In this document: positions 33,472-64,000 of the stretch, piece by piece
How positions within the stretch are numbered: position 1 is the first letter of the stretch
Layout: the number at the start of each line of letters is the position of its first letter
Origin: Vermamoeba vermiformis
Taxonomy: Eukaryota
Length of the DNA stretch: 64,000 bases
NCBI GenBank assembly: GCA_045837725.1
Contig: JBEWZL010000013.1
Location: forward strand, 186,001-250,000
Direction of reading: 5' to 3'
Program-made: the position numbers and the translations under genes
Notes under the pieces: generated by a model
Told to the model about the DNA's origin: nothing
The model's database searches: none
Seen by the model: the letters and a program-made list of their open reading frames with translations, nothing else

Positions 33472-36400
33472 ATGTCATCACCTGAGCAAAAGAGGAAGAA
33501 TAGCAATAGTATGTGGGATACGAAGCTGATTGCAAGCGATCTGGAGCAATCTTCATCAGGTCCACCACATACTAGGGATTCAAAAGCCCTCCAAATTAAA
33601 GAAAGAGGAGGAAAGCAAAATGGAGATGGCAAAGGAGCAGATGCGAATTACTCCCCCTCGGATTTTGTTATCAAAATTTTATTGGACGAATTCAAAACTC
33701 AAACACGAAAGAAAATAGACGAAATAATGAAATTTGGTATTGTAAGTATTAAAATGACCCATTTAAGGGTTTGCTAATATTTTCTAAATTATTGACAATT
33801 ATTCGGTTAAATATTCCAATCTTTCTAGGCATCATTTATTTGAATGCATGCTAATATAGTATTAGGACGAGAAGTTTCTACTATCAGATATTTTAGAATC
33901 AGATCCAAAAATGCACCATTTGATAAACTCAATGGCAGAACTTTCCAAATATCACTTGTCAGTATTAATAGACGAATTACTGACTTGGCGAGCAAGTTTG
34001 ACGTCTGACGTAACCAAAACGTAAGCCGATGATATAATTAGCACCGCGTCCATATTAGGATCTCTAATTTGTCGTCAGAGAATCTAATTCGCAGAAGGCC
34101 AAATCAACCAAAGAAACATTGCTCGTCGAAGAACGAAATAAGGTACGCATAGATATTAACATTATGATACTACTTGGTGGGTTACTAACGAGTTTTCATT
34201 CGTGTGTAGCTGGCCATTGAGTTTATATTCTGCAAGATTGTACTGCTATTACTCGAAAACAACTTGACAAAAGAAAGTTTAGAGGAGAATTTGAGCATCG
34301 AACTCGAACAGTTAGCGTTTAAATACCTCAAACCACCAGAGCGCAAAGAAGGTGACGTTGATGATTTGACACTGCTGCCTGCTAATAGACTCAAAATTCC
34401 GACACTATATGCGAAGATACTCGGGTCATTATCACAGTTTAGATTCAAAGACATCGCACATCAATATGTCAAAGAAATCACTTCTAATCCCGTGCGCTCA
34501 AAGAAAGCGATTTACGTCATTCAAGGCATTAGATATTTACGCTTTCAGGTATATTAATATCCATACACTTTAAATTACGATAAAATACTAATGTTGTTCG
34601 CAGCTGTCGAGTCAAGAAGGTGTCGAGCAAGCAGTGTGGTTCCTGTCAAAATTGCATTTGTTATTTAAAGCAGCACAACGCAGTGAAGTGCGACAGGCAT
34701 TAGCCGAGCTCTTTGTGAAGTTTTTACGGCCTTACGCACATTTTTGGATCAAGATACAGCAGCCTGGCATGACCGAGAAACTGCCGTTGTTGTCGCCATT
34801 GGGCACGTCACAAAAAGTAGCCACAATGACTGCGGTATGTCATGGTATAACTGTGAAATTTCATAATATTAACACTTCTAATTAGCCAACGCCACGAGCT
34901 CCAATTGATTTCTCAGCGTGGTTTGCGTTCCTTAAAACAACGTTTGAGAGTTTTGCTTTGAAAAAGATGAAGACAAAAGAATTGATGCCGACGTTCCCTC
35001 TCATGACTGTCGTGCTGTGTGCTTGCAAGGCTCAAGACTTCTCAGAACACTTCTATACATTCACCGAGAAGCTGCTACACGTGCTAAAGGTAAGAAAGGT
35101 TGACTACACCAACGGATTTGCTAATAATGATTCAGGATACAAAACTTCGACCAGTGGCGTTAGATTGTATTTTATATTTGTTAGAGACGTATTTGGTCTC
35201 GTCTGATGGCCCTGATGTCACGAAGTATTTGTTGGAGCTCAGCAGTGTCGTGTTCAGCTGCATTTCATCAACAAAGAGACAACCGCACCAAAACACTATG
35301 TTCGAAGCACTCGCGGTATTTGTGGATATTATTTGTATCATAGCTCATTTTAAGTTGCCCTTCGCTGTCGAAAATATTCTCTTCGAGTTATTGACGTGGA
35401 AAGGTGACAATTTTCAAGCCGAGTAAGTGCGCTTATACTCTATTAGGGCCCATCTAATTAACTCATTAGGAATGCAATGGTGGCCGTGTGTGTTATTGAG
35501 CGGTTACTCGTCAATGTGCCGTACAGAGGAAAAGATAAATCAGCGACAACAAAGACACAAGACGGACTGACAGAATATGCTCCAAAGTTAAGCCAGTACA
35601 TCTCGTCTGTATTATTGACCATCGACCAATCTTTGGGCAACTATCTACTGACGCAAACTAAGCCCGTCAATGGTAAGAATACTTACACTTCCCGTGAATG
35701 ATCTAACGTCCATCATTCAGAGGTGAAAAGTGAAAAAGAAAGTCTCATGCTCGAGCTGACACGAATCCTGTTGTCGTGCATACCGAAGATCATTCCCTCA
35801 AAGATTCCTTTGCCACGACTAATCAACATATTCTCACGATACTTGATTCACCTGGACAAAGGTATCAGCGAGAAGGCCACAGGCACACTATCAAGGCTCA
35901 TGAAAGAGCGACCTGACTTCCGACCAAATATCATCTACGGTCTGTCAGATTTTATCTTGTCAATACCTCACGGTCGCTACGACTTGATCTTCTCGTTGCT
36001 ATTCAAGCTGGGTCAGTTGCTAAAACAATGGATCGAGTACTTGAAGAACGGCGACACACAAGTGCCTCGCGATGCAGGAGATTTTGCAGAAGTCATGCCA
36101 AGCCTTCCTATCGAGAAAATAGAAGCAGCAGCCATTGTATTTTTATGCAGTCCAAAGGCCAAGATTAGGTTGCTGAGCTTGGAAATCCTTCGGTCACTTC
36201 GTTCGATCTCAGAGGAGCTCAAACAAGACAAAACACCTCGCAGCGGCCCTGGTTTATTCAATGTGCCATCGACACGTGTCATGGATGTCATTGACGAGAC
36301 TGGAAATGACGTCGTCAAGGACTTGCATACCGAGATTAATTTCTTGCGGGTAAGTTGTGCTCGTAGTCAAACAGTATAGGGCGGTAATAATAACAATGTT

Positions 36401-39400
36401 GCAGCCTGTTCGTCCAACAGCGAAGTCAATTGACCGAATTCTGTCTCGAGAAAGCCGTGAAGACCAATTAGTGTGGAGTTACAGTTTGGCCGGCCTAATG
36501 AAGTACATCTTAGAGCTGTGTTCTGATGCAGCACAACACACGTGGAGCTTGGTAAGCAAATTGCGTTGATATTTTTGTGAGCACAGCCTGACAATCACCC
36601 ACCAGATTTCTTCGAGAATTCATCAAGTTCAACCCGAAGAGAGCGATCGCAATCTCACCGGCGAGGAGCAGGAAGAGCTGTTAGTATGGTGGCGCAACTA
36701 CATTATTGTAGCGTGTGCAACTGTCTCAGCCGCTGATTGTACGTATTAATGTCTCCTTGTGTCATTCGCTAACAATTTTGCTTTAGTGTATTATGAAAGC
36801 AAAAAGAAAGATAGCAACGTAGCCTACAATGCGCGAGAGCTATTTATGAAGATAATTCCGTTCTTAAAGTCTTCATTCGAAACGCACAGAGAAGCGGCTA
36901 TAATGGTAATGTCATTCGAGCGATATCACACGCGCTAATTTTCTATCAGGCGCTACAAAGAGCTAACTATAACGTGTACGACATCTTATTTGACACACTG
37001 CGGCCATACGCTAAAGACTTTGATGACGACAAAAAGCCTCAGAAGAAGAGCAAGACAAAGCGTGATCGATTCCGTTATGAACTGATTCGTAAGGACCATA
37101 ATACCATTGCGATAAGACATTGATTAACTTTCTATTAGTGATCTACAGCAATATTTCTGAGAACATGAGACCTGGAACCCTGTCAATGAGCTCCAGTTTG
37201 AAGCAGCATTACATCTCATTCATCCAAGAGACCTGTCAATACCTATCACCGAACATCAATCCGTTCGGACACTTGCCACCGCGCTATTACTTTTGTATAT
37301 TAGTTAAGCATGTTGCACGCGACCTACAGTGCGGTGGTGAACCAATGGACAATGTACGTTAAAATTACGCGCCTAATTTGAGCTGACGTCGTATTTTAGG
37401 CCCTGCGAAAGGACTTGTTCCATTTGTTTGCCAAGTGGTGTAACATCGATGAAATGTTGCACGATGAAACTACCAAGAAGAAGCTGGTATGTCACAGTAA
37501 CGTAGATTGTTGTGCAGCTTATCTAATGTCAAACAGAGCACGGTTCTTGGTCCCATCAAAGACGTTGAGAAGAAGAAGGCGTATCTCAATTTGTTGAAGG
37601 AGCATGGCATTCAGTTGCAGCTAGTAGCATTCCAAGCAATTGAAGCACTGCTAGCCGGCCCGCACTTCGAAGCTGTTGGCCCCAACTACGAGTTCTTCAG
37701 TTGGGTATCGACGTTCTTACACAGCGAGGATGCAATTGTGCGACGACTGGCACGTTACGCACTCGAATCATTTTTGGACTCGATTGCTTACAAGTCCAAC
37801 ATCTTGGCGATCACTATCTCACAGTGCTACTCACCTGACTGGGACATTTCTTCGGCGTACTTTTTAAGCTTGGTTGAGCTGTACACCGAGGAGAAACTTC
37901 ATTGCAGTGAAGTTGAATTGCTCTTGCTCAGCATCTACAAGATGGGCGATCGCTCTTATTCAGTACGACGACGAGCACAAGACCTGTTGATCACTTTCAA
38001 GTCGCTTGTGAAGCAAAACGAGAAGTGGCAAAAGTTGTGCTTGGCGGTTGAGAGTGGCGTAGATGAGACCAATGAACGAGCTCAATTAAGTTTGTCAACT
38101 CGCCTTGCAAAAGAACACGTTGGACTTGTGTGCATGATCATCGAAGAGATGGTCTTGCGATTGGAAGCAGTTGATGAACGAGGCAAGCGTCAAATGTTGA
38201 CTTGCTTGATCCCGTGGATCGAGAACTTGGATTTGAAGACACTGCCTGGAGAGTTGCTGCAAACCACGATCGAGCACCTGTTGTTGATGACCCTGAAGTA
38301 CAGCATGGATCACGCTGCTCAAATCGAACAGATTTGGTTCACTGTTGCCAAGTCCGAGAGCAACGTAGTGTTGCTGCTAAATAAGCTCTTAGATATCGGT
38401 AACACGAAGGTAAGTGCAGCGGTATTGATAAACAATTTTGCTTACAATTCTCCTCAGCGAAACTTTGACTTCATCGACTTGGCGAGTACGGTGATTATCT
38501 ATCTTGGCCGTATTTGTTCCAAGTTGACTGTGGACACACTTGTGCCCGAGCTTTCCAAACTCTACAGATCAGAGTTCGTGCCTAGTGCACACGTCAAGGG
38601 CTTGAGCAACACATCGAATTCGGGTGACTTCAAGTCTGTACCGTCAAATAGCACACTGACGGATCCATCGTACTACACGTTGAGCTCGTCAGAGATCAAG
38701 CGATCCGAAGCTTTTACAGAAATGTCCACAGCAGAGACACAATTCAACTCGTTCAGATCTGTCAAATCACGCAGCGATGGAACTAAGGAAATGGTAGCAG
38801 AAGAAACGCCTTCCAAGCTGACGATGAGTGCTGAAAATCGCGATCCTAATCCTATGGTTAAAGTGAACTCCAGATCAAAACTGCCACGTCCTTCAGTGCC
38901 GCCCATCCCTGAAAAGCCACCGAAGGTGAAAACACGCCGAGGCAGTATCAGTGACTCATCAGGCCAAGGACGCAAGCGCTCAGCGAAAGACGAGGAATCA
39001 TTCAGCTCAAGTGAAGTGATTGACATTGAAAGTTCCGAGAGTTCGGTGTCAAAGTTCTTGCCAAAGAGCTTCTCCACTCCTCTCACTATTCCAGAGATTC
39101 ACTTCGAAGAACCTAAGCTGAAGCCACTCTCCATGTTCATTCCTACCATCAATGACGCTGACGTGCATCGTTGGGGTCTGTCGCGTGGTCATCTGGCTCT
39201 AGTCTTCCTTGCGCAGCTGACCTACGAAGTGGTCGACGAGTGCAAGAAACACTTGCCTATCATCTTCCAACTGGCATTTTTGGGCATGGACTATCCTCAG
39301 CCAGTGGTCTACGAGAACTGTCGTATTATCTTGCTCAACCTCGTACAAAATCTGATTGTCACTCCCATGGAAAGCAATGCACAGCCCAAGACACAAGAAC

Positions 39401-42400
39401 AAAAGAACGTGTACGAAGAGGCAGTGTACTTGGTGCAATTCCTGCGCGCTAAAGCGGGCAAGCAATTGTGGACCAACGAGGAGATCACCTTGAAGAAGAC
39501 AGAGATTCGCAGCACACAAGAGTTGACGGACCTCGTGCAAGCGATGTGCACTATCTTTGGAACTGACAAGGAGACTGTCGAGAACTGGGCCAGCCAAGCT
39601 CTCGGCTGGGCTCTTGGCGGTCTATCAATGCACATTCGCGGTCGCTCGTATCAAATCTATCGTGCCCTTAGCCCGAGCTTGAATCGTGAGGCGATGAACG
39701 AGCTGCTCGAGTCACTCTTGACATCTATCAGTGAAGTCAAGCGCAGTGAGAATCGTGCCTTGGCATTGGAAATCTTGTACACATTGCAGAGCATTGTCAA
39801 GAGCATGGACGCACAGAAGTTGATTCTGTTCCCGCAGATCTTTTGGTCCATGGCTGCTCTCCTGCACATGGACTACGAGCAGCATTACTTCAGTAAGTGC
39901 TGATAGATTCTATCGATCACGTTTAACAATGTTTTAGATGCTTTGAAGCTGCTGGGACAACTGTTTGACAAACTCAATTTCAACGACAAGTACATCCAAA
40001 ACGTGTTCTCGGCGAGCATTCCTAAGGATTGGTATGGACGACAAAGTAGATTTGTGCGGTATTAACACGTTACCTTGCAGGGATCCACCATTCAAAGGAT
40101 TGCAACCGTTGATTTTGAAGGGTCTCTTCTCCCCAATAAGCGAAGAGAAAGCGATCGAAGTGTTGTCAAAACTCACTTTGCTGCCATGTGATGCGATTAT
40201 TCACTCAGATCCTGGACGTGCCATTGTCAACTTGGTAAGCGGATTGCTACCATGCTACAAGCATTACTAACTAGCACAGATTGCTTTGTTGCCGTGGATC
40301 ATCACCATGTCCAGCAAGGGTCACTTGAGCGAATGTTCCAAAGCACTCACCAACCTAACTCAGTTGTGCACTACAAAGGGTTGGACAGAGCTCGGTGATG
40401 CATTCAAAGCATTGAGCAAATCCAAGTCTTCAGAGGGCTTCGATCAGTTCATGAATGACTTGCGCAAAGCACTCCCAAAGGTGATCTATCCCGACTACTG
40501 CTACTTCACTTTCACGTTCTTGTTTGCCATGCTCGATGAAGGTGTCGAGAAGTACCACAAAGCAGTGCTCTTGTTGCTTCAACTGTTGCTGCAAGACAAG
40601 TCCATTGTCGTGCAGTTGTCAACTCTGCCTCCTTCAGTCGTGATGGAATCCACCAGCAATCAACAAGGCTCGTCCAGTCCTCCAGGCACGCCACTCGCCC
40701 CTATTGTGCATTGGGTCGTGCAGTTGTGCAAGCAGCTACAAGGACCACACTGGGAATTGGCTCTGCCCATTCTGTCCAAGTACATGGCCACAGAGTCCAC
40801 TAACGTTGAAATCGCGTCCAACTTGCGCTCCTCCCGAGCACTCAGTGGCATGCCCAAGCTACCGATGGATCTCAATCAGTTCTTGAACAAGCCAGGCAAA
40901 GGTGTCTCGCACACTGCCATTAACTTGGACAAAGTTTTGTCCACTGAGTCACGCAAGAGAGCTCAGCTCGATCAGAGCACGTTGAGTTTGGTCAGCTCGT
41001 CTGAAGGCGATTCTGACTCGGAAGAGTCTTTGGACAGCGATTCATCTGTGGACGAGGATCAGTTGGGGTATGTCTGCTTGTGAATACGATTTTCGTACAT
41101 CAATTAACCTTTGCATTAGATTCTTGTTGAACGACAAAGAAGCTGAGCCTGAGGACATTGACAACTTCACCAATACTAACTTTGGACGGTTCCCGACTTT
41201 CAGAGGATTTGATGGTACGCTCGCCAAATCGAGTTAAAGCTAGCTCGTTACTAACACTTTATAGATCTTTTGGCCAAGTTAGAGTCGATTCCTCAAGACG
41301 CCAAAGATAGAGAACGTGAAGGCAAGGAGAAGGACAAGGAGAGCAAGGACAAAGACAAAGAAAAGGACAAAGATAAAGACAAGGATAGGGATCGAGAGGG
41401 CAAGGACAAGGCTGAAAGAGACAAGGCTGCTGTGCCAGTGTCACCGCGCAAACAAGTCGGCTCTTCATCAAGCAGAACACCGTCCAGTCCTCAAAAACAA
41501 TATCCGCGCAGCACATCGTCCAAGTATCCAACGAACGGCAGTGACTTCAGTGACAGCGGCAGTCAGTCTGGTGGCTCGTCGCCTTCAGGTACTCTGCGCC
41601 GCAAGTTCGCTATTTCGTTCGACAACAAACTCTTGAAGACCACCAAGTACGTATAGTCATATTAGTGTGTAAATAAGGTTCTAATTGATACACAGGAAAT
41701 GGCGTCGCTTGGCAGCACAAAAGACCTTCCCGCACACTGCAGAGCTGTTCGCTATCTTCCCAGTGGTGAATCAGCTGATGGATCTGCTGCAGGTCGATTA
41801 CAAGTCAGCCTATCAGAATGTGTTCAAGACCTTCAAGACTGACATCAAGTCGCAAATCTACTCGCCCACATTGAAGGGCGACAGTCCGCTCTACAACTCA
41901 CTGTTGAAACAAATCCCTGAAATGATGTTCAGTCTCGTGACCACTAAATACAATCAACGCTTGAGAGTAAGTGACACTTGTGACACGTGTCATTCGCGAG
42001 TACTAATGACTTAACAGACTGACTCATCGTTCCAACAAACATTCCTGGAGCAGCGTGCCAAGCTCATTCAAGATTTCTCGCAGCAGCAAATGACGTACAC
42101 CGAGGGCCGTGTCAAGGTCGAAGAAGTCAAAGCACAAGTGCACGAGACGGCGCTGAGTGAGGAGGAACAAATCAAGCTGGAGAAACAACTCGCCCTCGCA
42201 CTGTGCAACTTGCACTCACAGCTGTTGCAGTGCACCAAGGTCTATCTCTCGCTGCAGCAGTTAGTGCAGGACATTCTCAAGCAAGAAACGGTGAGTAGTG
42301 ATACGAGGACTCAATTGATTGATACAGTGATATTAACGAACTCGGCTACAGGCTGAAGACCAAGAAGTCAAGACAAAGATCATCACTGAAGAGATCCGAA

Positions 42401-52731: not shown

Positions 52732-54414
52732 ATGAGTGACATAACACCTGCTAGACTACAAAAGGTATTGCAGCAATTGAAGAGCCAATCACCGCTTGCT
52801 GGAGCTAGCAAAACTGAGCAAATTAAGAATTCTTTGAAAGATGACACCAAGAAGTAAGAAAATTATTTTAATATAATAATCAATTATTATTGATAGTATT
52901 GTTATGAGATATTCTTCTAAATAATATATTTGAATTTTTGCAATAATTTATTTTGGCGCCGAATAAATTTCCAATTAATTTCTAATTAACACCATTACTA
53001 GCGCGAGTTTTGACTGCAGACCATGGGACTACTCGATGTTTTTGCGACGAGTGCGCACTTATCAAGTCATGACGTGGTTCGCCAAGCCCAAAAAAATTAA
53101 TCCCTTTGCCTGTGCTCGGTACTGCTACAACATACCCATATGATTAACCATACTAACGTATTGTCATATTGTAGCTTTGGTTGGATAAATTGTGACTTTG
53201 ACATGCTCGAATGTCCCTCGTGCAAACAGCGCCTCTTGTTCGCACCCTCTAAACAACTCACGCAACAGGGTCGTAAGTGCTGTGTTGTCACTGATTACAC
53301 TGCCCCATGTGCTAATAATACACAGTGGAGGACGCAGCAGCGGCATTCTTGACACAGCTCGAGACCTCGCACTCAGAATACTGCCCGTGGCGCAACAACC
53401 CGAGTCCGTCGCACTTCACACACTTGCCGTACGATCAGAGCAAAGTGCTGGACCAGTTCTCAGATAGATTCAAAACATTTCAAGCTGTCTCTCTGCCTGT
53501 GGTGAGTGTACAGACTGAAGAACGCGTTGTAAGTGATAGATAGATATTTATGACGTTAATGACCGATGACTCATCGAGTTCAACAGAAAACACTCATCGA
53601 TGACAAGTTAGATTTGCTAGTGGACGATAGGGGACACAAAGACGCTGTCAAGGTAATGTTAGTTGTCTGTAAACATACAGCCAACTAATGAGCTCATGAG
53701 CAGGCAGCATTCATCTTAGCCGTGTGTGGCTGGGAGTGCATGCAAGAACAAGAGCAGCACATCATTTACTGTTCGCAGTGTCAGCGCCAAGTAGCACTCA
53801 AACAATGCAATCAACTATTAGAGCACCAAGTCAACGAGGATGATGTAAATATGACAGTACGGCTTTTGAAAGAGAGTCAGCACGGTGCTGCTGAGAATGA
53901 TGATGCGCACCCATCGAGTCCAACACAATCACCGCACAGTCGCAAGAGAGATCGTGAGCCAACAGAGGGCGACAAAGACAGTGAACAGGGCGCTAGCAAA
54001 CGAGCAAGAATTGAGCCACAAGAAAGCAGTACCAACGGCGAACACAGCCACAACACCAGCACTGACAATGCTGGCACAACAGTTGAGCCCAGTGCTCCAT
54101 TCGACAGCACGAGCACGGCACAGCAACAGACTGCCTCGCCGTACAATTCACCCACCGCAACACTGGTGCGTGACAAGCCATTTGATCCGGTGAATGAACA
54201 CCGCTACTTCTGTCCGTGGATCAACAGCTACGAAGAGAGTGCGCAGACCAGTCTCGTTGCGTGGCAGAAAGGTCTCGTCGCACTGTTTTCATTGCCCGCT
54301 GCACCCACCGAACACGTCATTGCCGCGCCCAAATCATTCTCAGATTTTCAAACAATTTTGAATCGTATTCGCGCTGTGGTGCAAACACCGAACAAAAGTG
54401 TACATAAACTGTAA
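52732..54414 (+). CDS. ZC3HC1: NIPA/ZC3HC1 (Rsm1/Pml39-like) C3HC zinc-finger protein
   Basis: CRPWDYSMFLRRVRTYQVMTWFAKP...CAR-FGWINCDFDMLECPSC; HSEYCPWRNNPSP; LAVCGW...CSQCQR; FDPVNEHRYFCPW. Confidence 0.9.
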
Positions 54415-54452
54415 TATCTACTCTAGTTTACATCGATTAGTCACTTCTACAA

Positions 54453-55540
54453 TCACTTTCTCTTCATTGTGTGCAGGTAAGTGCATTGCTCGCCCTTGTT
54501 GCACATCTTCTGCAGCCAGTGAAAGCAGACCAACTCCTCGCGCACTTCAATGTCTGGCTGTTCCTCTTCATTCGCAGCATCCTGGGCATTATCTGGCTCA
54601 GCCTCCTCTTCAACCTCCTCTTCCTCGCCGTTCTCATTATTTTCACCTTCAGCGTCTTTCTTCGCAGGATACATGTTGTACCACGTCTTGCGGCCCAAAT
54701 GAGGGTTGGGTGCGTGCCAGGGCATGCCATCCTCGTCCAAATAAGGTAATATTTCAGACTCGTCAATAAATGTCGTGCGACCGTCTTCGATTCGATTCAA
54801 ATAAAATCTCGTTGGCTTCCTTTCAGTGGTCAGACCGAGCGCCAATACGGTGCCGAGGACTTGCTTCACGGTGGAATTGAACGTGGCAGATGTGGTCTTG
54901 TGATGAATTTGTTTGGCAATGCGCAATACGTTCTCTAAGGTGATGTCGCCTTTGTACTTGTCTACAAAGGGTCAGTTCAATTAACCAATAGAAGTGACAA
55001 TCGTTGTGTCACGTACATTGTTGCTTGGTCCATCGTCTGCGATTGATTTCATACCCTGCGCGCCACAGATTAGCAGAAATTAAATTGCGTGATTCGAAGT
55101 CCTTGATGGGTGCCGATGAGGCTCTAATCACCATCTGCGAGGTCGTGGGAGTGCATCGGCAGATGCACTCTCCGGATTTGTTGCCCTTCCACGTAAATGT
55201 TATATCAACTTTATAATCGCGCCACGGCATGGTAAAATCTGTCGTGTAAGTCGAAACTCCAGCTACTCCACCCTTTACTGGCTAAATTGAGATAAGAATA
55301 TTGCCCGAATTTATTAATTTCGCTACCAAAACTTACTGTGCCATTGATAGTTTTGGGCATTAATGATTTTATAAGATCAAATGCTGCACAACCAGTGGAC
55401 TTCGCTCTCCCTCCATACGCGCGGTGCGTAACTCGAAAAAAACGTCAATACTTTTAGTATTAACCACGCGCTAACTTACCACTGTGCTCCTCGAGCGTAG
55501 TTTGGTTACTATCGGCGCTTTGTTTTGGTTTGTACATCTC
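54453..55540 (-). CDS. Divergent uL11/RPL12-like protein fused to an acidic linker and C-terminal CCCH zinc finger; start uncertain (about 55540-55628)
   Basis: LRTAYGGRAKST; PWRDYKVDITFTW; CTPTTSQMVIRASSAPIKD; KYKGDITLENVLRIAKQIHHKTTSATFNSTVKQVLGTVLALG...LNRIEDG; terminal CFHWLQKMCNKGEQCTYLH. Confidence 0.75.
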
Positions 55541-55806
55541 TATTGCGTTGCCGTTGTGAGAATAAACGGAGCAGAAAAACTCGAGAATAAACCCACCGAC
55601 CGTCCCAACCTGTCAGTGTGTATCGCATTCTAAGAAAGATCTGGGTACAATGACGCCAAGATATTTAGCAAGGGGTATGTTCGAAACTTAGGTGGAAACA
55701 AACGACTTCCGGTTGTTCTGCCTCTTGGCGGTCAAAAAAATTAGTCGTGATTTCCCCATTGCCATAAAATCCACGAGCACAAAGCCCGATACATTTAAAT
55801 AATCGG

Positions 55807-57513
55807 ATGAAGCGCAAATCAGATAGCGAAGCCCCGAGCCACAACAAGAGGGCTCGTGTCAATAATAACAATGAAAGAATGCACGATCGCAACAAATACA
55901 AAGACAAGCCACCAGATTTTTTAGAATTGAGCCAGAAATACGAGTCATTTGCTCAATAGTAAGTCTGTTCGTGCCAATAACATCGCATTAATCGACCTCA
56001 GCGTAAAATATTCGAAAAAAGGAACGCCAACCATTGATTTTACGGATCCTTATGCGGCTAGGCACGTATTGAGCGATTAAATATTTTTTCTAGCATCTGT
56101 TAATTATTTTTTAAGGGAGTTGACGAAAGTACTCCTGGATCACGACTACGGCATTAAAATTGACTTGCCAATTGATCAACTATGCCCAACAGTACGTATT
56201 TCAGTCGATTATTTCTGATTAGATGTAGATAAATATATAAATAACAGGTAACATCAAGGTATGAAAATTCTTTGCGGAATCAAAGAGGAAGGTGATCTGA
56301 CTAGTTGAAGGACCAATTACATTCACTGGCTAGAGGATGTTCTCAAATATTCCGAGCCAGTCAATGAAAATGGTGTTGTAAGAGGCATTGACATGTAAGT
56401 TGTTGCATTTGTACGCTTTTATACGGCACTAATCTGCTGTCAAGTGGCACGGGTGCCTCATGCATTTATCCACTGCTGGGCGTTGCGATAAATAATTGGT
56501 CGTTTGTCGCTACAGGTACGTCAATGGATTACGCGCAGCAGTAACTTATAGTTGCATTCAGATATTGATGATAAGTCACTGGAACTGGCGCAGAAGAACA
56601 TTGAACTGAATCAATGGCAGCACAAGATTGAGCTGCGCAAGCCCACTGAAGACAACATATTGCTGACAGTAGTGCGCGACAATGAGTAGTAAGTGATGCG
56701 TGCGGATTAAAACAGAATTAACTCGTTTCACAGCTATGACTTTTGCATGTGCAATCCACCGTTCTTTGGCAGTGTCGAGGAGAAGGGTGAGAACCCTCAG
56801 ACAGTGTGCACGGCCACATCGAATGAGCTCGCTACTGAGGGCGGTGAATTGGAGTTTGTCGGACACATCATTCGCGACAGTCTGCAGCTGCGACATCAAG
56901 TGCGATGGTACAGCTCGATGATTGGTCGCAAAGTCAATGTCGCGCCACTGCTGAAACTGCTGCACGACAATCACATTCACAACATTCGTCAAACGACTTT
57001 CTATCAAGGCCGCACTACTCGTTGGGCTATTGCATGGTCATTCAGCAACGACGGATATTATCAAATACAAGTTAGTATTTGTTTGATATGCCCCTATAGC
57101 CTAGAATAACACCTTTTTGTTAGAGAGAAGCTCGCCGTGAGTTAAATACGACAAAGAAGTCAGTGGCGTTTATTCTGCATAATGCGCAAAGCAGCCAGGT
57201 ACAAAAGATCATTCAACAAGTGCTGGAGAATGAATCAGTGCCATACGAATACAATCAAGTACAATCTACATATTACATTGTTGTTGAAGGAGGTACTCCA
57301 TTAGCAGCCAGTTGGAACGAGTTCAACGGGGAGGACAAAAACCACCGCGAGGGGCAATTGATACTCAAAATGTCGCTACAGATACATCAATCGCAAGAAG
57401 ACCAGGTTATGGTGCTTAGTAAGCTAATGAATGGAGATCAATATTTGTACGTCATGTTCTTCGAGTACTTAGAGAGCATTTTTGATGCTGTACGCGATGT
57501 GGAGGACGAATAA
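55807..57513 (+). CDS. METTL16: METTL16/RlmF-family RNA m6A methyltransferase
   Basis: MHDRNKYKDKPPDFLELSQKY; LCPT-VTSR-TNYIHWLED; GIDIGTGASCIYPLLG; MCNPPFF; TEGGELEFV; WYSSMIG; QGRTTRWAIAWSF. Confidence 0.95.
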
Positions 57514-57937: not shown

Positions 57938-60532
57938 ATGACAGCAAGGCCACGTAGATCAACAGCGAACTATAATAATAATAACCCACTGGGCTTACCA
58001 GAGGATGCACCTAAACAGTGGACAGAACAAGAACTACAAACTTTCTTCAAAGGTCAGTCAGCATAATATTTTAATAGCATAATATCAATATGAACATGTT
58101 ATTAAATTACCGTTTATTGTAGAACTCGTAAAGCACGGCAAAACTTGGACACAAATTGCCGAGGCACTGCCAGCACGAACACCACTCGACATTGAGAACT
58201 TATATAAGAACCACGAGAACTTAATCAAGACACTACTAACACAACAAGCCAACTTACCACCGCCCGAGCCAAACGCGGATCCAACCCTTCCCGATCTGTC
58301 GGTATTCGTTGCCTCAGTACACGACCACTACAGCGCACTGTACAACATACAGCAGCGCAGCAGTGAGGCCGAGAACGAGTCACCAACGATCTTGGGCCGA
58401 ACTAAAGCGGTCAGCAGGACGGGCAGTGCAAAGAAGAAAACAGGCAAGAAAGACAGTCCCACCAAGGTACGTGCCACACCAGTCTTGTTGCGCACATTGT
58501 TAGGTCTGATGTCACGTGCACTGACTGCGCGCACTAGATCAAAAGGAGGTCGCGGAGGAAATTAGAATACGACGAGGACGAGGAAGCGAGTTCAGAGGAG
58601 AGCGACGAGTCACAGCCCACGGTGAGTAACGACACTGCGTGAGGACGAGCATTCACTACTAACGATGTGTTGACAGCCTGTGCGTCGTTCTGCACGTACT
58701 AAAGGACAAGCGTAAGTGAACAAATAATTCCACACCGCCATTGCACCAAGCTGACACGTGACAGGACCGACGATGTGGAAGGAGTGGAAGAATTGTTAGC
58801 CCTGGCACTGAGTGGTCACGGCGACAAGGCCGATGGTCAAGCCAACACTGGTCGCACTCGCAGTCAAAACAGTGCCGCACAAGACAAACTCCCGCCACGA
58901 CTGCGCAACAAATCAGCCAAAGATCAGAGTGCCAAGTCCACGAGTGCCATTCAGAGTCCTGCACGGTCAACTTCACCGACGAGAATCAGTGTGATTCGTG
59001 TGCCGGGCAGTGACAAGCTGCTCGAGGCACGGCTGAACAGTGCCCTCGCCAATCCCAAGTTCCGTCAGTGGTGTTTGTACGAGTTCTTTTACGCCACTAT
59101 TGATCAGGAGTTCTTTGCACAAAATGATTTCCAGCAGTGTCTCGACGGTCTGGGCTTGGCCTCTGTCACGCATTTGACTCGTCCCAAGTGGCGTTATGTG
59201 CGCAGTGTCATTGGCAAGCCACGTCGTGTGTCCCATGCATTTTTCATGGAAGAGCGCACCAATTTGAACGCTCATCGCATGGCACGACGAAGTTCTGAAG
59301 ACGAGCAAGAAAAAGATGAAGAGAACAAGAATGTTGAAGAGGACGAAGCGAGTCAAAGCAGCAAAGAAGAGCCCGCGTTGATTCCTGTGGGGTCACCAGT
59401 GTTGTGTACGTGCTCTTATTTACTTCAATTACCATGCTAACACTTCGCAGTCTATGACGAGGACAGCAAAGAATTGTTGCGCGGAGTAATCACTTCACCA
59501 CACTCCAACTGTTGTTATGACATTAAGCTGAGTACTGGTGAGACCAAGTCTGTTGAAGACATCTGGGTCATGGTACGGAGAATCACTCTTTGTCATGTGT
59601 ATTACGGTATATCTAAGACAAATTATTTTGCAGTCATACGAAGAAGTCAACGAAGCTAAGCGTAAATTCGACACAATATCGACTACGAATGTCAACAATG
59701 TGACAGCACGAGACGACAAAGAGGACTCGGACTATTCAACTTCAGAAAGACCGACTAAACGGCGGCGAGTGGAACCGATCAAAGGAGGTACGTGCCGTTG
59801 TGGTCGTTGACACCTTAGTTCATGACACTCTAACTAATCCTAACAGAACGTGTACCAAGCCCCGAACGAACAACACGCACCGCAGATCTGTCAGAACACG
59901 TCAAATTGAGCAAAGACAGCTTGCAGAAGGTTGCAGGATTGATTTGGCTGTTAGAAAAGAAGGACAGTCTGGTACTCGAACTGCGCGGCTTAAATGACGA
60001 AGCAGAACGACTGACACTCGCTGAAGAGGAGTTGAGTGAAGATTTCAGACACAAATACGCCACTGTAGTTGTCGCTATCAGTCAATTGAATGTCGAACTT
60101 GAAACAGCGCTCAATACCGTGCGCCAGATGAAAGAACAGTCGAAACAGAGCACAGGTCCCACACCAATCAATCGTGCGAGTTGGTGGACTGAATTGAATG
60201 CTGAGTGCAAGAACACTGCGCGCCTAGTAGTGCAGCGCATATTGGGTGACATGCCGTCAGATGAGGACAAGAAACACGTCACACTAGTCGAGCACAGCGT
60301 GGCCCTGCTACAGTACGTGGCACAGTGCACTGAGCTCGATCTGAATGACAACGAAGTGGCCCTAGCACTCAATGCAGCACTCACCGCACTTAGACCACGC
60401 ACCGTGACGAGCAACGACCTCACCGTGCAGAATCCAAATATGCGATTGTATGCTGAAATTGAAGCCGCGGTGAACGAATTGAAAAACAAAATGACGAAAT
60501 CGAGTGCGAATAATAACAAGGAAAGTAAATAG
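57938..60532 (+). CDS. LIN9: LIN9/ALWAYS EARLY (DREAM/MuvB subunit): Myb/SANT, DIRP, Tudor-like and coiled-coil domains
   Basis: QWTEQELQTFFK-ELVKHGKTWTQIAEAL; RQWCLYEFFYATIDQEFFAQNDFQQCL...LTRPKWRYVRSVIGKPRRVSHAFFMEER; FRHKYATVVVAISQLN. Confidence 0.9.
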
Positions 60533-63223: not shown

Positions 63224-64000
63224 TTATTTCTTGGCTACAGTCTGCCCAGCTTGAGCGAGCACGAACCACTCGTTGCGGCACTTGACAGCATGACGTCGCA
63301 CGAGTCGTTTCTTGTCGTCGAGTGCCTTGCTGAGTGCATTGAGCACCGCGCTCTTGAACGGCGCAATCTTGACATAGGCGAACTTGGAGCACTCGGTCAG
63401 GCAGTCGAGCGCTATCACACGCATCTTCATCTCGGGGTGATGCACCGCTAGACGCAGCAGATGCGGCACCATCTGCTCAGCGTGCTCCTCCATGATGCGC
63501 GGCACTTCAATGTTGAGCAAGCAGATGAGTGACACGATGGAGTGCGAGACGGACGACAGATCTGCAGTCGCTGTGCCGGCTGTGAGCTGCGCGGCCATGG
63601 AGTTGAGCGTGTTGAACAGCACGGGCAGTATCGCACTGAGGTCGTTGAGCAGCACATCCACGGGCAGCTGCGACATGAGCTGCGACCAGGCCAGCAGCAC
63701 AATGTTGTAGTGACTCGCAGAGCTCTGTTGACTGGTGGTCATCTCTTTCATCAGCATGGGCACTTCATAGGTGAAGGTCTTCTGTCGGTAGAGCTGCTTC
63801 TTGTTGGGCATGATCTCGTTCAAGGTGATCTCGCGACTCAGCAGCGAGGACTTGACATCTGCGCTGTGTTGGTGCGCGGGCTGTTCGATCAGTTGAATCA
63901 CTGTCACGTGATCGTGTTGCAGCAGGGCACTGAAGTTGAGTGCTGCAAACTGTGCGAGATTGAGATCTGGATTGCGCAACAGACCAATCACGTGCTGCCA
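63224..64000 (-). CDS. MMS19: MMS19/MET18 (CIA targeting complex), C-terminal part, 5'-partial
   Basis: LYRQKTF; MKMRVIALDCL; VLNALSKALDDKKRLVRRHAVKCRNEWF. Confidence 0.92.
   Translation of the reverse strand, partial: WQHVIGLLRNPDLNLAQFAALNFSALLQHDHVTVIQLIEQPAHQHSADVKSSLLSREITLNEIMPNKKQLYRQKTFTYEVPMLMKEMTTSQQSSASHYNIVLLAWSQLMSQLPVDVLLNDLSAILPVLFNTLNSMAAQLTAGTATADLSSVSHSIVSLICLLNIEVPRIMEEHAEQMVPHLLRLAVHHPEMKMRVIALDCLTECSKFAYVKIAPFKSAVLNALSKALDDKKRLVRRHAVKCRNEWFVLAQAGQTVAKK

Follow-up and report, generated by a model that had tools for sequence, protein, structure and literature searches.

The gene under study lies on the minus strand of the window, that is, of the whole 64-kb stretch of DNA analysed, and all of its features given below are on that strand. 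The coding region of this uL11-like/CCCH gene extends over positions 54453..55537, in agreement with the span 54453-55540 given in the preliminary description, and consists of four exons amounting to 927 nt including the stop codon and encoding 308 amino acids. The start codon ATG occupies positions 55537-55535 and the stop codon TGA positions 54455-54453, and when the four exons are joined the frame is open over 308 codons with one terminal stop. The gene model was built by hand and then checked against a spliced contig from run X1. Exon 1 (55480..55537) encodes residues 1-19 and the first base of codon 20 and is represented in the X1 contig by the piece 55480-55550, whereas intron 1 (55432..55479; 48 nt, GTAAGT..AG) corresponds to a joint 55431/55480 in that contig, with ends CT..AC on the plus strand. 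The uL11-like N-domain begins in exon 2 (55337..55431), which is colinear with the homologue P0011. After intron 2 (55282..55336; 55 nt, GTAAGT..AG) the remainder of the N-domain and the first part of an enlarged inter-domain loop are encoded by exon 3 (55017..55281), and after intron 3 (54962..55016; 55 nt, GTACGT..AG) exon 4 (54453..54961) provides the uL11 C-domain, an extension, an acidic linker, a CCCH finger and the stop codon. The neighbouring gene content of the window (LIN9/DIRP, Furry, MMS19, METTL16-type) is, together with the introns of 48-55 nt, that of a gene-dense eukaryote. Scanning the window for Rfam families and tRNAs returned nothing, and tblastn with nine family and canonical proteins revealed no second uL11-like gene within its 64 kb.

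A public contig of 841 nt from run X1, which shows 17 mismatches, lacks exactly the three predicted GT..AG introns, and in run X22 three RNA reads diverge at position 54961 into a sequence that, when translated by hand, resembles exon 3. From a related organism (X21-X23, 90-99% alike), RNA-seq reads cover both the extension and the finger. Of the 34 differences listed, 26 are synonymous and 27 fall on third codon positions; between positions 54663 and 54747, all nine listed differences from the RNA reads of the related organism are synonymous. These data show that the gene is expressed, spliced and under purifying selection, and it is a real and conserved gene.

The part of the product homologous to uL11 (54771..55480; residues 20-203, with three introns inside) was recognized by hhalign, by a profile search of the PDB and by Foldseek. 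The Pfam family Ribosomal_L11 (PF00298) matched the product of exon 4 alone with 25.2 bits (cut-off 21.4) and was above its cut-off in all seven members of the family of uL11-like paralogues described below, with scores of 23.6-34.5 bits. In a phmmer search of the PDB, archaeal L11P and eukaryotic RPL12 were matched at 2e-5 to 1e-4. Alignment of the family profile with canonical uL11 by hhalign comprised 160 columns and both domains, with a probability of 99.85% and an E value of 1.2e-30, and so bears out the resemblance to RPL12 over both domains that had been described earlier; the peptides quoted in its support (PWRDYKVDITFTW, PTTSQMVIRASSAPIKD, KGDITLENVLRIAKQI, STVKQVLGTVLALG) are present in the translations of exons 4 and 3. 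The N-terminal domain PF03946, however, gave no Pfam match in the product of exon 3 nor in any of the seven family members, and since the N-domain is included in the profile-profile alignment, homology has been kept there while the family signature has been lost. Identity to canonical uL11 is about 24%, as compared to 36.6% between a canonical eukaryotic and an archaeal-like row. Against the PDB, the family profile matched cytosolic uL11 with an E value of 8.8e-27, archaeal L11 with 1e-15 and mitochondrial uL11m with 1.2e-3, and no bacterial L11 was obtained at E 0.01 or better. The NCBIfam equivalog NF002232, an archaeal model in a library that holds no eukaryotic equivalog, scored 38.3-48.1 bits in seven of seven members, which is below its cut-off of 162, and the bacterial-type TIGR01632 reached 20.3 bits or less, or was absent, in family members. 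The gene product is almost certainly a strongly diverged paralogue of cytosolic (archaeal/eukaryotic-type) uL11/RPL12.

A structure model was obtained for the homologue P0011 from an alignment of 84 rows including canonical uL11, and it is good only for residues ~17-225, with a pLDDT of ~90 in the C-domain core and values below 50 for linker and finger (230-310). Its best Foldseek matches were uL11 of human and Chaetomium pre-60S/80S particles with target-normalised TM scores of 0.74-0.84 (0.80 to uL11 of pre-60S particles), but because canonical uL11 rows were part of the alignment, the predicted uL11 fold is no independent evidence. A previous model from the eight family rows alone had a pLDDT of 32 and was discarded as unusable. 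The ESM Atlas gave no usable match, either with P0011 or with the P0001 tail.

The two domains have diverged to different degrees. When columns conserved in at least 85% of 24 canonical rows were compared with eight paralogues and the sums taken by hand, the canonical residue was kept in 93 of 152 cells (61%) of the C-domain, including G128, T129, V130, K131, L134, G135, T136 and G141, and the signature positions of this domain were mostly kept in seven or eight of the eight paralogues. The RNA-binding C-domain core of the present protein (54834..54950; residues 144-182), delimited by PF00298 and by the column comparison, accordingly displays the G-T-V-K..L-G-T....G signature. In the N-domain, only 37 of 176 cells (21%) were kept; within the loop P-K-x-G-P-L-G..K-K, residues P30, K31, G33, P34, L35, K40 and K41 persist in none or one of the eight paralogues and G36 in three. 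This loop of canonical uL11 faces the translational GTPases, and its loss speaks against the protein having the usual function of uL11 during translation. The C-domain has not remained unaltered either, as the basic loop R-D-R-K-K..K-N-I-K-H of canonical uL11 is replaced in the paralogues by a different and longer one, and the helix following G-T reads V-L-A-L or V-D-T-L instead of carrying the small residues A-x-S-x; with these two changes, the RNA specificity may differ from that of uL11. Between the domains, the enlarged loop (54951..55101; residues 112-143, with intron 3 inside) accounts for the insertion that had been noticed before, as 38 residues separate the domains here and 35-47 across the family, compared to 17 in canonical rows. 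The family's loop is thus basic and two to three times as long as the canonical one.

Downstream of the uL11-like part follows a family-specific extension (54666..54770; residues 204-238) with the sequence FIDESEILPYLDEDGMPWHAPNP and then KTWYNMYP, whose motif (D/E)-I-(I/L)-P-(L/Y/F)-L-D..G.P is shared with finger-less relatives. The acidic linker claimed in the preliminary description is evident from 21 D/E versus 3 K/R (54531..54671; residues 237-283), with 50% D/E in its best window of 40 residues. Across homologues, in part judged from read ends translated by hand, the acidity of the linker is conserved and its sequence is not, and all family members possess acidic tails with hydrophobic residues. 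The CCCH zinc finger, C-x7-C-x5-C-x3-H (54471..54527; residues 285-303), is followed by a basic end T-M-K-R-K. Its best match in the PDB was finger 2 of CPSF30 (E 6.5e-6), as the CPSF30-like designation given to it earlier would imply, and it scored below the Pfam cut-offs, with 25.7 versus 29 bits for zf_CCCH_4 and 16.0 versus 20.5 bits for zf-CCCH. A single short finger rarely reaches whole-protein Pfam CCCH cut-offs. The finger pattern, of the C-x7-8-C-x4-5-C-x3-H type, occurred in all 26 sequences of the finger clade. It had been considered before that the CCCH part might lie outside the protein; finger and uL11 C-domain are encoded in one exon and one open frame, and full-length homologues of 308-310 amino acids contain both. 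Among other candidates, Pfam Torus (27.7 bits versus a cut-off of 29) reduces to the finger itself in full-length homologues and was therefore rejected as a domain assignment, and weak matches to F-box, DUF697, HMA and CpxA were treated as noise.

Together with other uL11-like paralogues, the protein makes up a rare family of about 11 clusters, nearly all of them environmental. The eight paralogues form one clade (99/97) in the tree, surrounded by eukaryotic cytosolic sequences and with archaeal-like rows as the outgroup, and the finger clade (100/97) is nested inside it. The family as a whole shares the tail motif and the long loop, but the finger is found in one subclade only, which makes it a late addition, and since most members lack it, the function common to the family cannot centre on it. 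The identity put forward in the preliminary description, a divergent RPL12 paralogue with insertion, linker and finger in one protein, holds; the wider, mostly finger-less family and the loss of the factor-facing loop had not been foreseen there. Homologues at 49-76% identity retain every part. Most of the relatives are represented in databases by fragmentary models of 156-209 amino acids that start inside introns or read through them. When P0001, P0011 and the finger-less alignment A6 were used in word-based searches, only the same 6, 4 and 4 clusters were recovered, and a motif scan of 80 metagenome loci detected the family in two of them (L001 and L002), the other 78 being ordinary uL11 or unrelated. 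As far as these searches reach, the paralogue family is rare and lineage-restricted. No description of a uL11-like paralogue family or factor was found in full-text literature searches. What is new here, as read from the sequences, is membership of this protein in a rare uL11-like paralogue family with a long loop and a tail motif, in which the finger is confined to one subclade.

With canonical uL11 (RPL12/L11P; PF03946 + PF00298), the product has in common the colinearity of both domains, a PF00298 match above cut-off, the predicted two-domain fold and the C-domain signature; it departs from it by its low identity, the loss of the P-K-x-G-P-L-G loop, the longer inter-domain loop and some 100 added residues with motif, acidic stretch and CCCH finger, where canonical uL11 has no tail. 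The finger shares with CPSF30/Yth1 finger 2 its C-x7-C-x5-C-x3-H spacing and a local V-C-x-H-W-L-x-x-x-C-x-K-G-[DE]-Q-C-x-[FY]-L-H. However, CPSF30/Yth1 contains an array of five fingers, whereas the present protein has one, carries no other part of CPSF30 and, unlike CPSF30, holds its finger at the extreme C-terminus behind an acidic linker. A similar architecture is seen in Mrt4 (uL10), Rlp24 (eL24), Rlp7 (uL30) and Imp3 (uS4), which, according to passages of a review, are likewise diverged r-protein paralogues that have kept the RNA-binding part and added a paralogue-specific extension, a feature present here too; in these passages no uL11-like member is listed (PMC5425277). The Mrt4/Rlp24 class is pan-eukaryotic, whereas the present family is rare and lineage-restricted.

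CCCH fingers bind single-stranded RNA, and uL11 binds the GTPase-associated centre of the large-subunit rRNA. On this background, the most likely reading, at somewhat less than an even chance, is that non-translating particles offer the protein a docking place at their uL11 site. Its C-domain would still dock at helices 43/44 of the large-subunit rRNA, in the GTPase-associated centre, and retention of the C-domain signature is what would be expected if a conserved rRNA target had been kept. There the protein would stand in for canonical uL11, in the way that Mrt4 takes the place of uL10 and Rlp24 that of eL24. The new tail, in which a conserved motif packs beside the C-domain and an acidic stretch follows, would then be a handle for recruitment, release or regulation, and in the finger subclade the finger might add a contact with single-stranded RNA. 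Gene model, splicing, homology, family features and purifying selection are established by the data, whereas we infer what the protein binds on the rRNA, on which particle it does so and what its tail is for. In the part of the review that treats them, Mrt4 and Rlp24 are described as placeholders, and the C-terminal tail specific to Rlp24 recruits the release factor Drg1 (PMC5425277). Against a stand-in counts the fact that, judging from the titles of the Foldseek matches, canonical uL11 is already present at early nucleolar stages in known pre-60S structures, so that there is no known need for a placeholder of uL11.

Alternatively, the uL11 fold might have been re-used for another structured RNA, with the finger reading a single-stranded element next to it, as in the control of mRNA 3' ends or of mRNA stability, and the protein might never be found on a ribosomal particle. 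We regard such an extraribosomal RNA-binding protein as possible, though somewhat less likely. It would fit with the loss of nearly all canonical residues in the N-domain, with the replacement and enlargement of the basic RNA-contact loop of the C-domain, with an identity to canonical uL11 that falls below the one between eukaryotic and archaeal-like rows, and with a finger whose nearest relative is that of CPSF30, which reads the poly(A) signal. Also, a ribosomal-like protein need not occupy the site of the r-protein to which it is paralogous, as Rlp7 and Imp3 show by binding elsewhere (PMC5425277); paralogy is thus no proof of a shared binding site, a point that weighs against the stand-in as well. 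The finger-less condition of most members, however, means that reading of mRNA by the finger was not the ancestral function, and the uL11 C-domain signature is retained at most positions throughout nearly all of the paralogues. To our knowledge, no other cellular RNA mimics helices 43/44. The same signature would agree with a specialised ribosome, one of the ideas raised in the preliminary description beside an assembly placeholder and an mRNA tether, in which the protein replaces uL11 at the stalk base of a subset of translating ribosomes while acidic tail and finger tether mRNAs or factors at the GTPase-associated centre. The acidic tails with hydrophobic residues of all members recall the stalk proteins P0/P1/P2, which have acidic C-termini, and the conserved finger could bind mRNA or rRNA. 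Yet such a role seems unlikely, since the N-domain loop conserved across archaea and eukaryotes is gone, so that ribosomes of this kind would probably elongate poorly, facing the GTPases without it, and since a core function in translation does not fit a family so rare and so fast-evolving.

A second divergent nuclear gene of the uL11 family is what mitochondrial uL11m looks like at first sight, and it had been asked before whether the gene is simply uL11m. This is highly improbable, as the archaeal-type model (38-48 bits) and the cytosolic PDB chains (E 8.8e-27) match far better than TIGR01632 (20.3 bits or less) and the uL11m chains (E 1.2e-3), the clade falls within the eukaryotic cytosolic part of the tree, and the N-terminus exceeds that of canonical uL11 by only ~8 residues and, by eye, holds D/E, which is atypical for a presequence. 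Equally remote is a decaying pseudogene or a prediction artefact joining unrelated pieces, which the mostly fragmentary database models of relatives might bring to mind; against it stand 308 open codons, the existence of a spliced contig, the excess of synonymous differences (26 of 34), homologues of 49-76% identity that keep every part, and the exon shared by finger and C-domain. Returning to the stand-in at the uL11 site, we only tentatively suggest that the family represents the first uL11-like 'ribosomal-like protein', a stalk-base stand-in with its own stalk-like acidic tail and, in the finger subclade, a CCCH finger.

uL11 is situated at the base of the ribosomal stalk, the docking place of elongation, termination and stress factors, and few known proteins are as conserved. 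Mrt4 and Rlp24, paralogues of r-proteins in its neighbourhood, proved to be key assembly factors. A conserved and expressed uL11 paralogue that keeps the RNA-binding half, lacks the factor loop and carries a finger tail would amount to a natural experiment that separates the parts of uL11 needed for docking from those needed for function. If it does bind the stalk base, this would point to a lineage-specific control of ribosome maturation or activity. On pre-60S or idle 60S particles, a stand-in could silence the stalk base or hold it, or it could link such particles to a specific RNA, and the docking site of all translational GTPases would then be subject to a further, new level of control.

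Reading of the minus strand and comparison with full-length homologues gave a four-exon model for the uL11-like/CCCH gene (exon 1, 55537-55480; exon 2, 55431-55337; exon 3, 55281-55017; exon 4, 54961-54453; all on the (-) strand), which lies in gene-dense eukaryotic sequence with introns. Its own introns of 48, 55 and 55 nt begin with GTAAGT or GTACGT and end in AG, and the joined exons amount to 927 nt, with 308 codons and a single terminal stop. A single 841-nt contig from the public sequencing run X1 matched 55550-55480, 55431-55337, 55281-55017 and 54961-54553 with 17 differing letters and omitted precisely all three modelled introns. As such a spliced form is only possible from RNA, the modelled gene must be expressed in a strain of this organism or a very close relative. 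This contig stops within the acidic linker; beyond that point exon 4 continues, in one open frame, into the finger. RNA-seq reads of a related organism (runs X21, X22 and X23, with 31, 40 and 43 aligned reads, nearly all 90-99% alike) span 54428-54770, finger included, and hand translation of their overhangs at 54554 and 54649 gives D-E-G-E-V-E-E-K-K-E and D-E-D-N-E-D-G-E-D. The related organism therefore also has an acidic linker, albeit of different spelling, between the finger and the extension, the family-specific segment behind the uL11 part. Also, three X22 reads depart from the window at 54961 with a hand-translated overhang, S-S-R-R-W-T-K-R-Q, that resembles the end of exon 3, indicating that the exon 3/4 joint is used in the X22 organism as well.

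Within the coding region, 34 differences were seen in the aligned reads and the X1 contig, 27 of them at third codon positions and 26 synonymous, a count in which conserved stretches are favoured since reads were aligned only at ≥90% likeness. Only synonymous changes were seen in the extension motif (nine differences, 54663-54747) and at the start of the C-domain (six differences, 54906-54951). The third-position bias is nonetheless the pattern of constrained coding sequence.

Several neighbouring genes were noted. The end of a NuBaID/ZC3HC1-like gene (53722-54414, (+); Pfam PF08600) lies just 39 nt from the uL11-like stop codon (54453, opposite strand); as the two genes converge, their transcripts must come into near contact at the 3' ends or overlap there. 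On the other side, a gene for a METTL16-type RNA methyltransferase (55807-57106, (+); Methyltransf_10, PF05971) begins some 270 nt away from the ATG of the uL11-like gene, in opposite orientation, which suggests a possible shared promoter region for two RNA-related genes; this gene order is retained in the metagenome locus L001, which is little informative because L001 is a close relative. According to the window gene annotation, LIN9/DIRP of the DREAM complex (58703-60529, (+)), a large Furry/MOR2-PAG1 gene (34210-41080, (+)) and the C-terminal part of MMS19 (63224-63991, (-)) are also present, all ordinary eukaryotic housekeeping genes of interest here solely as pointers to the lineage.

The preliminary description had read this locus as a divergent RPL12 paralogue with an acidic linker and a CPSF30-like finger, and every element it listed was found in place in the translations of exons 3 and 4 and in the joined frame; the finger is encoded by exon 4, in one open frame with the uL11 C-domain. 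Exon 4 alone scores 25.2 bits with the Pfam model of the uL11 RNA-binding domain, above the gathering cut-off of 21.4, and its PDB matches include archaeal L11P and eukaryotic RPL12 (E 2e-5 to 1e-4), with no bacterial or mitochondrial L11 up to E 10. When the family profile was compared with a profile of six canonical rows, 160 columns covering both domains were aligned (probability 99.85%, E 1.2e-30). Against the PDB, it reached 8.8e-27 for eukaryotic cytosolic uL11, 1e-15 to 2e-8 for archaeal L11 and just 1.2e-3 for mitochondrial uL11m, and no bacterial L11 was found at E ≤0.01 among the 36 sequences listed. Similarly, the archaeal-type NCBIfam model scored 38-48 bits and the bacterial-type one ≤20 bits, both far under their equivalog cut-offs. 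Identity to canonical rows is only about 24% (39/163), compared with 36.6% between a canonical eukaryotic and an archaeal-like row. An AlphaFold model of the homologue P0011 (84-row alignment) was confident at residues ~17-225, with a C-domain pLDDT of ~90, and poor across the tail. Foldseek placed it closest to uL11 of human and Chaetomium pre-60S particles and of 80S ribosomes (E 5.7e-11, TM 0.80 to target, ~190 columns), with uL11m at rank 30; as canonical uL11 rows were present in the model's alignment, this confirms homology and is not an independent test. Taken together, these comparisons identify the protein as a cytosolic-type uL11 paralogue and not as uL11m.

Word-based searches yielded six clusters with 54-98% identity, including full-length proteins of 299-310 aa labelled 'ribosomal protein L11' by a source. 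When 1.84 billion representatives were searched exhaustively with a profile, 219 matched at E ≤0.001, for the most part ordinary uL11 or CCCH proteins with several fingers. Seven matches are close relatives, two in the finger clade (P0007, P0032) and five finger-less (P0029, P0030, P0031, P0036, P0040), the latter with longer cluster members P0178, P0180 and P0182. Apart from one NCBI entry, all of these family sequences are environmental, and the family was present in just 2 of 80 loci in a metagenome contig scan. Its inter-domain loop comprises 35-47 residues vs 17 in canonical uL11 and has the core R-N-L-I...L-G-K-G-G-Y-E. Immediately behind the uL11 part, the tail has the motif (D/E)-I-(I/L)-P-(L/Y/F)-L-D..G.P in 26/26 finger-clade sequences and seven finger-less ones, with a variant in P0040/P0182. 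Replacements at canonical positions are fixed in 8/8 paralogues each (L81->M, L86->S, G56->D or N). The long loop, the tail motif and the replacements are three derived features common to the family; an acidic stretch, terminal or internal, occurs in every member.

A maximum-likelihood tree (37 rows, 165 columns) comprised eight paralogues, 27 other eukaryote-type uL11 and two archaeal-like sequences, the non-paralogues being profile-search matches with a coverage of 140 or more positions in a canonical profile; P0035 and P0123 were excluded as chimeric or long. The paralogues formed one clade (99/97) among eukaryotic sequences, with the finger clade (100/97) nested within. The exact attachment point is unsafe given the long branches, but the grouping of the paralogues has separate, tree-independent support from their common insertions and motifs. 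Among environmental data, P0087 and P0098 formed a separate divergent uL11 pair (96/94), P0117 (353 aa) carries a 190-residue N-terminal part of no known kind before uL11, and the uL11 model P0035 is duplicated in tandem, possibly through misassembly. For the clusters of P0009 and P0008, which represent the two finger subclades (~50% identical), the longest contig is in both cases 590,435 bases long; should this be one contig, a single genome may carry two finger-bearing copies. Only one copy was found in the 64-kb window.

The finger, C-x7-C-x5-C-x3-H at residues 285-303, best matched finger 2 of CPSF30 (E 6.5e-6, PDB) and fell slightly short of Pfam CCCH cut-offs (25.7 vs 29). Since canonical uL11 has no finger, it is a gain in one subclade.

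The uL11 C-domain grips helices 43/44 of large-subunit rRNA. Across 41 columns with at least 85% agreement in 24 canonical rows, the eight paralogues kept the canonical residue in 93/152 cells (61%) of the 19 C-domain columns, with A114, G128-T129-V130-K131, L134-G135-T136 and G141 each kept in six to eight paralogues, vs just 37/176 cells (21%) of the 22 N-domain columns. P30, K31, G33, P34, L35, K40 and K41 of the N-domain loop, which in uL11 faces the translational GTPases, were each kept in at most one paralogue, and G36 in three. Where canonical uL11 has a basic loop adjoining RNA, the family has a longer loop of its own, whose second half is still basic.

Tentatively, and by analogy, the C-domain would dock on large-subunit rRNA of non-translating particles, at the site that uL11 uses. 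The protein would then be a stand-in for uL11, comparable to the uL10 stand-in Mrt4 and the eL24 stand-in Rlp24; the tail might be a handle and the finger an extra contact to single-stranded RNA. We put this somewhat short of an even chance. The review PMC5425277 names Imp3, Mrt4, Rlp7 and Rlp24 as r-protein paralogues and describes recruitment of Drg1 for release by the Rlp24-specific C-terminal part. According to this review, Rlp7 and Imp3 bind sites other than those of their paralogues, so that paralogy does not prove a binding site; an extraribosomal RNA-binding role is somewhat unlikely, though to be taken seriously. Membership of mature specialised ribosomes, one of the roles proposed in the preliminary description, seems improbable, the GTPase-facing loop having been lost. 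A mitochondrial uL11m is very improbable, as cytosolic structures matched far better, and an equally slight chance is left to an artefact or pseudogene, set beside a spliced transcript and mostly synonymous differences.

In the open full-text literature, searched at the level of listings and abstract openings, no uL11 placeholder and no uL11-like paralogue bearing a CCCH finger was found described. In summary, the protein is expressed and constrained. It combines a uL11-type domain for RNA binding and a remodelled N-domain with a conserved tail motif, an acidic linker and a CCCH finger, and we rate it as a new combination of domains in a paralogue of an r-protein.
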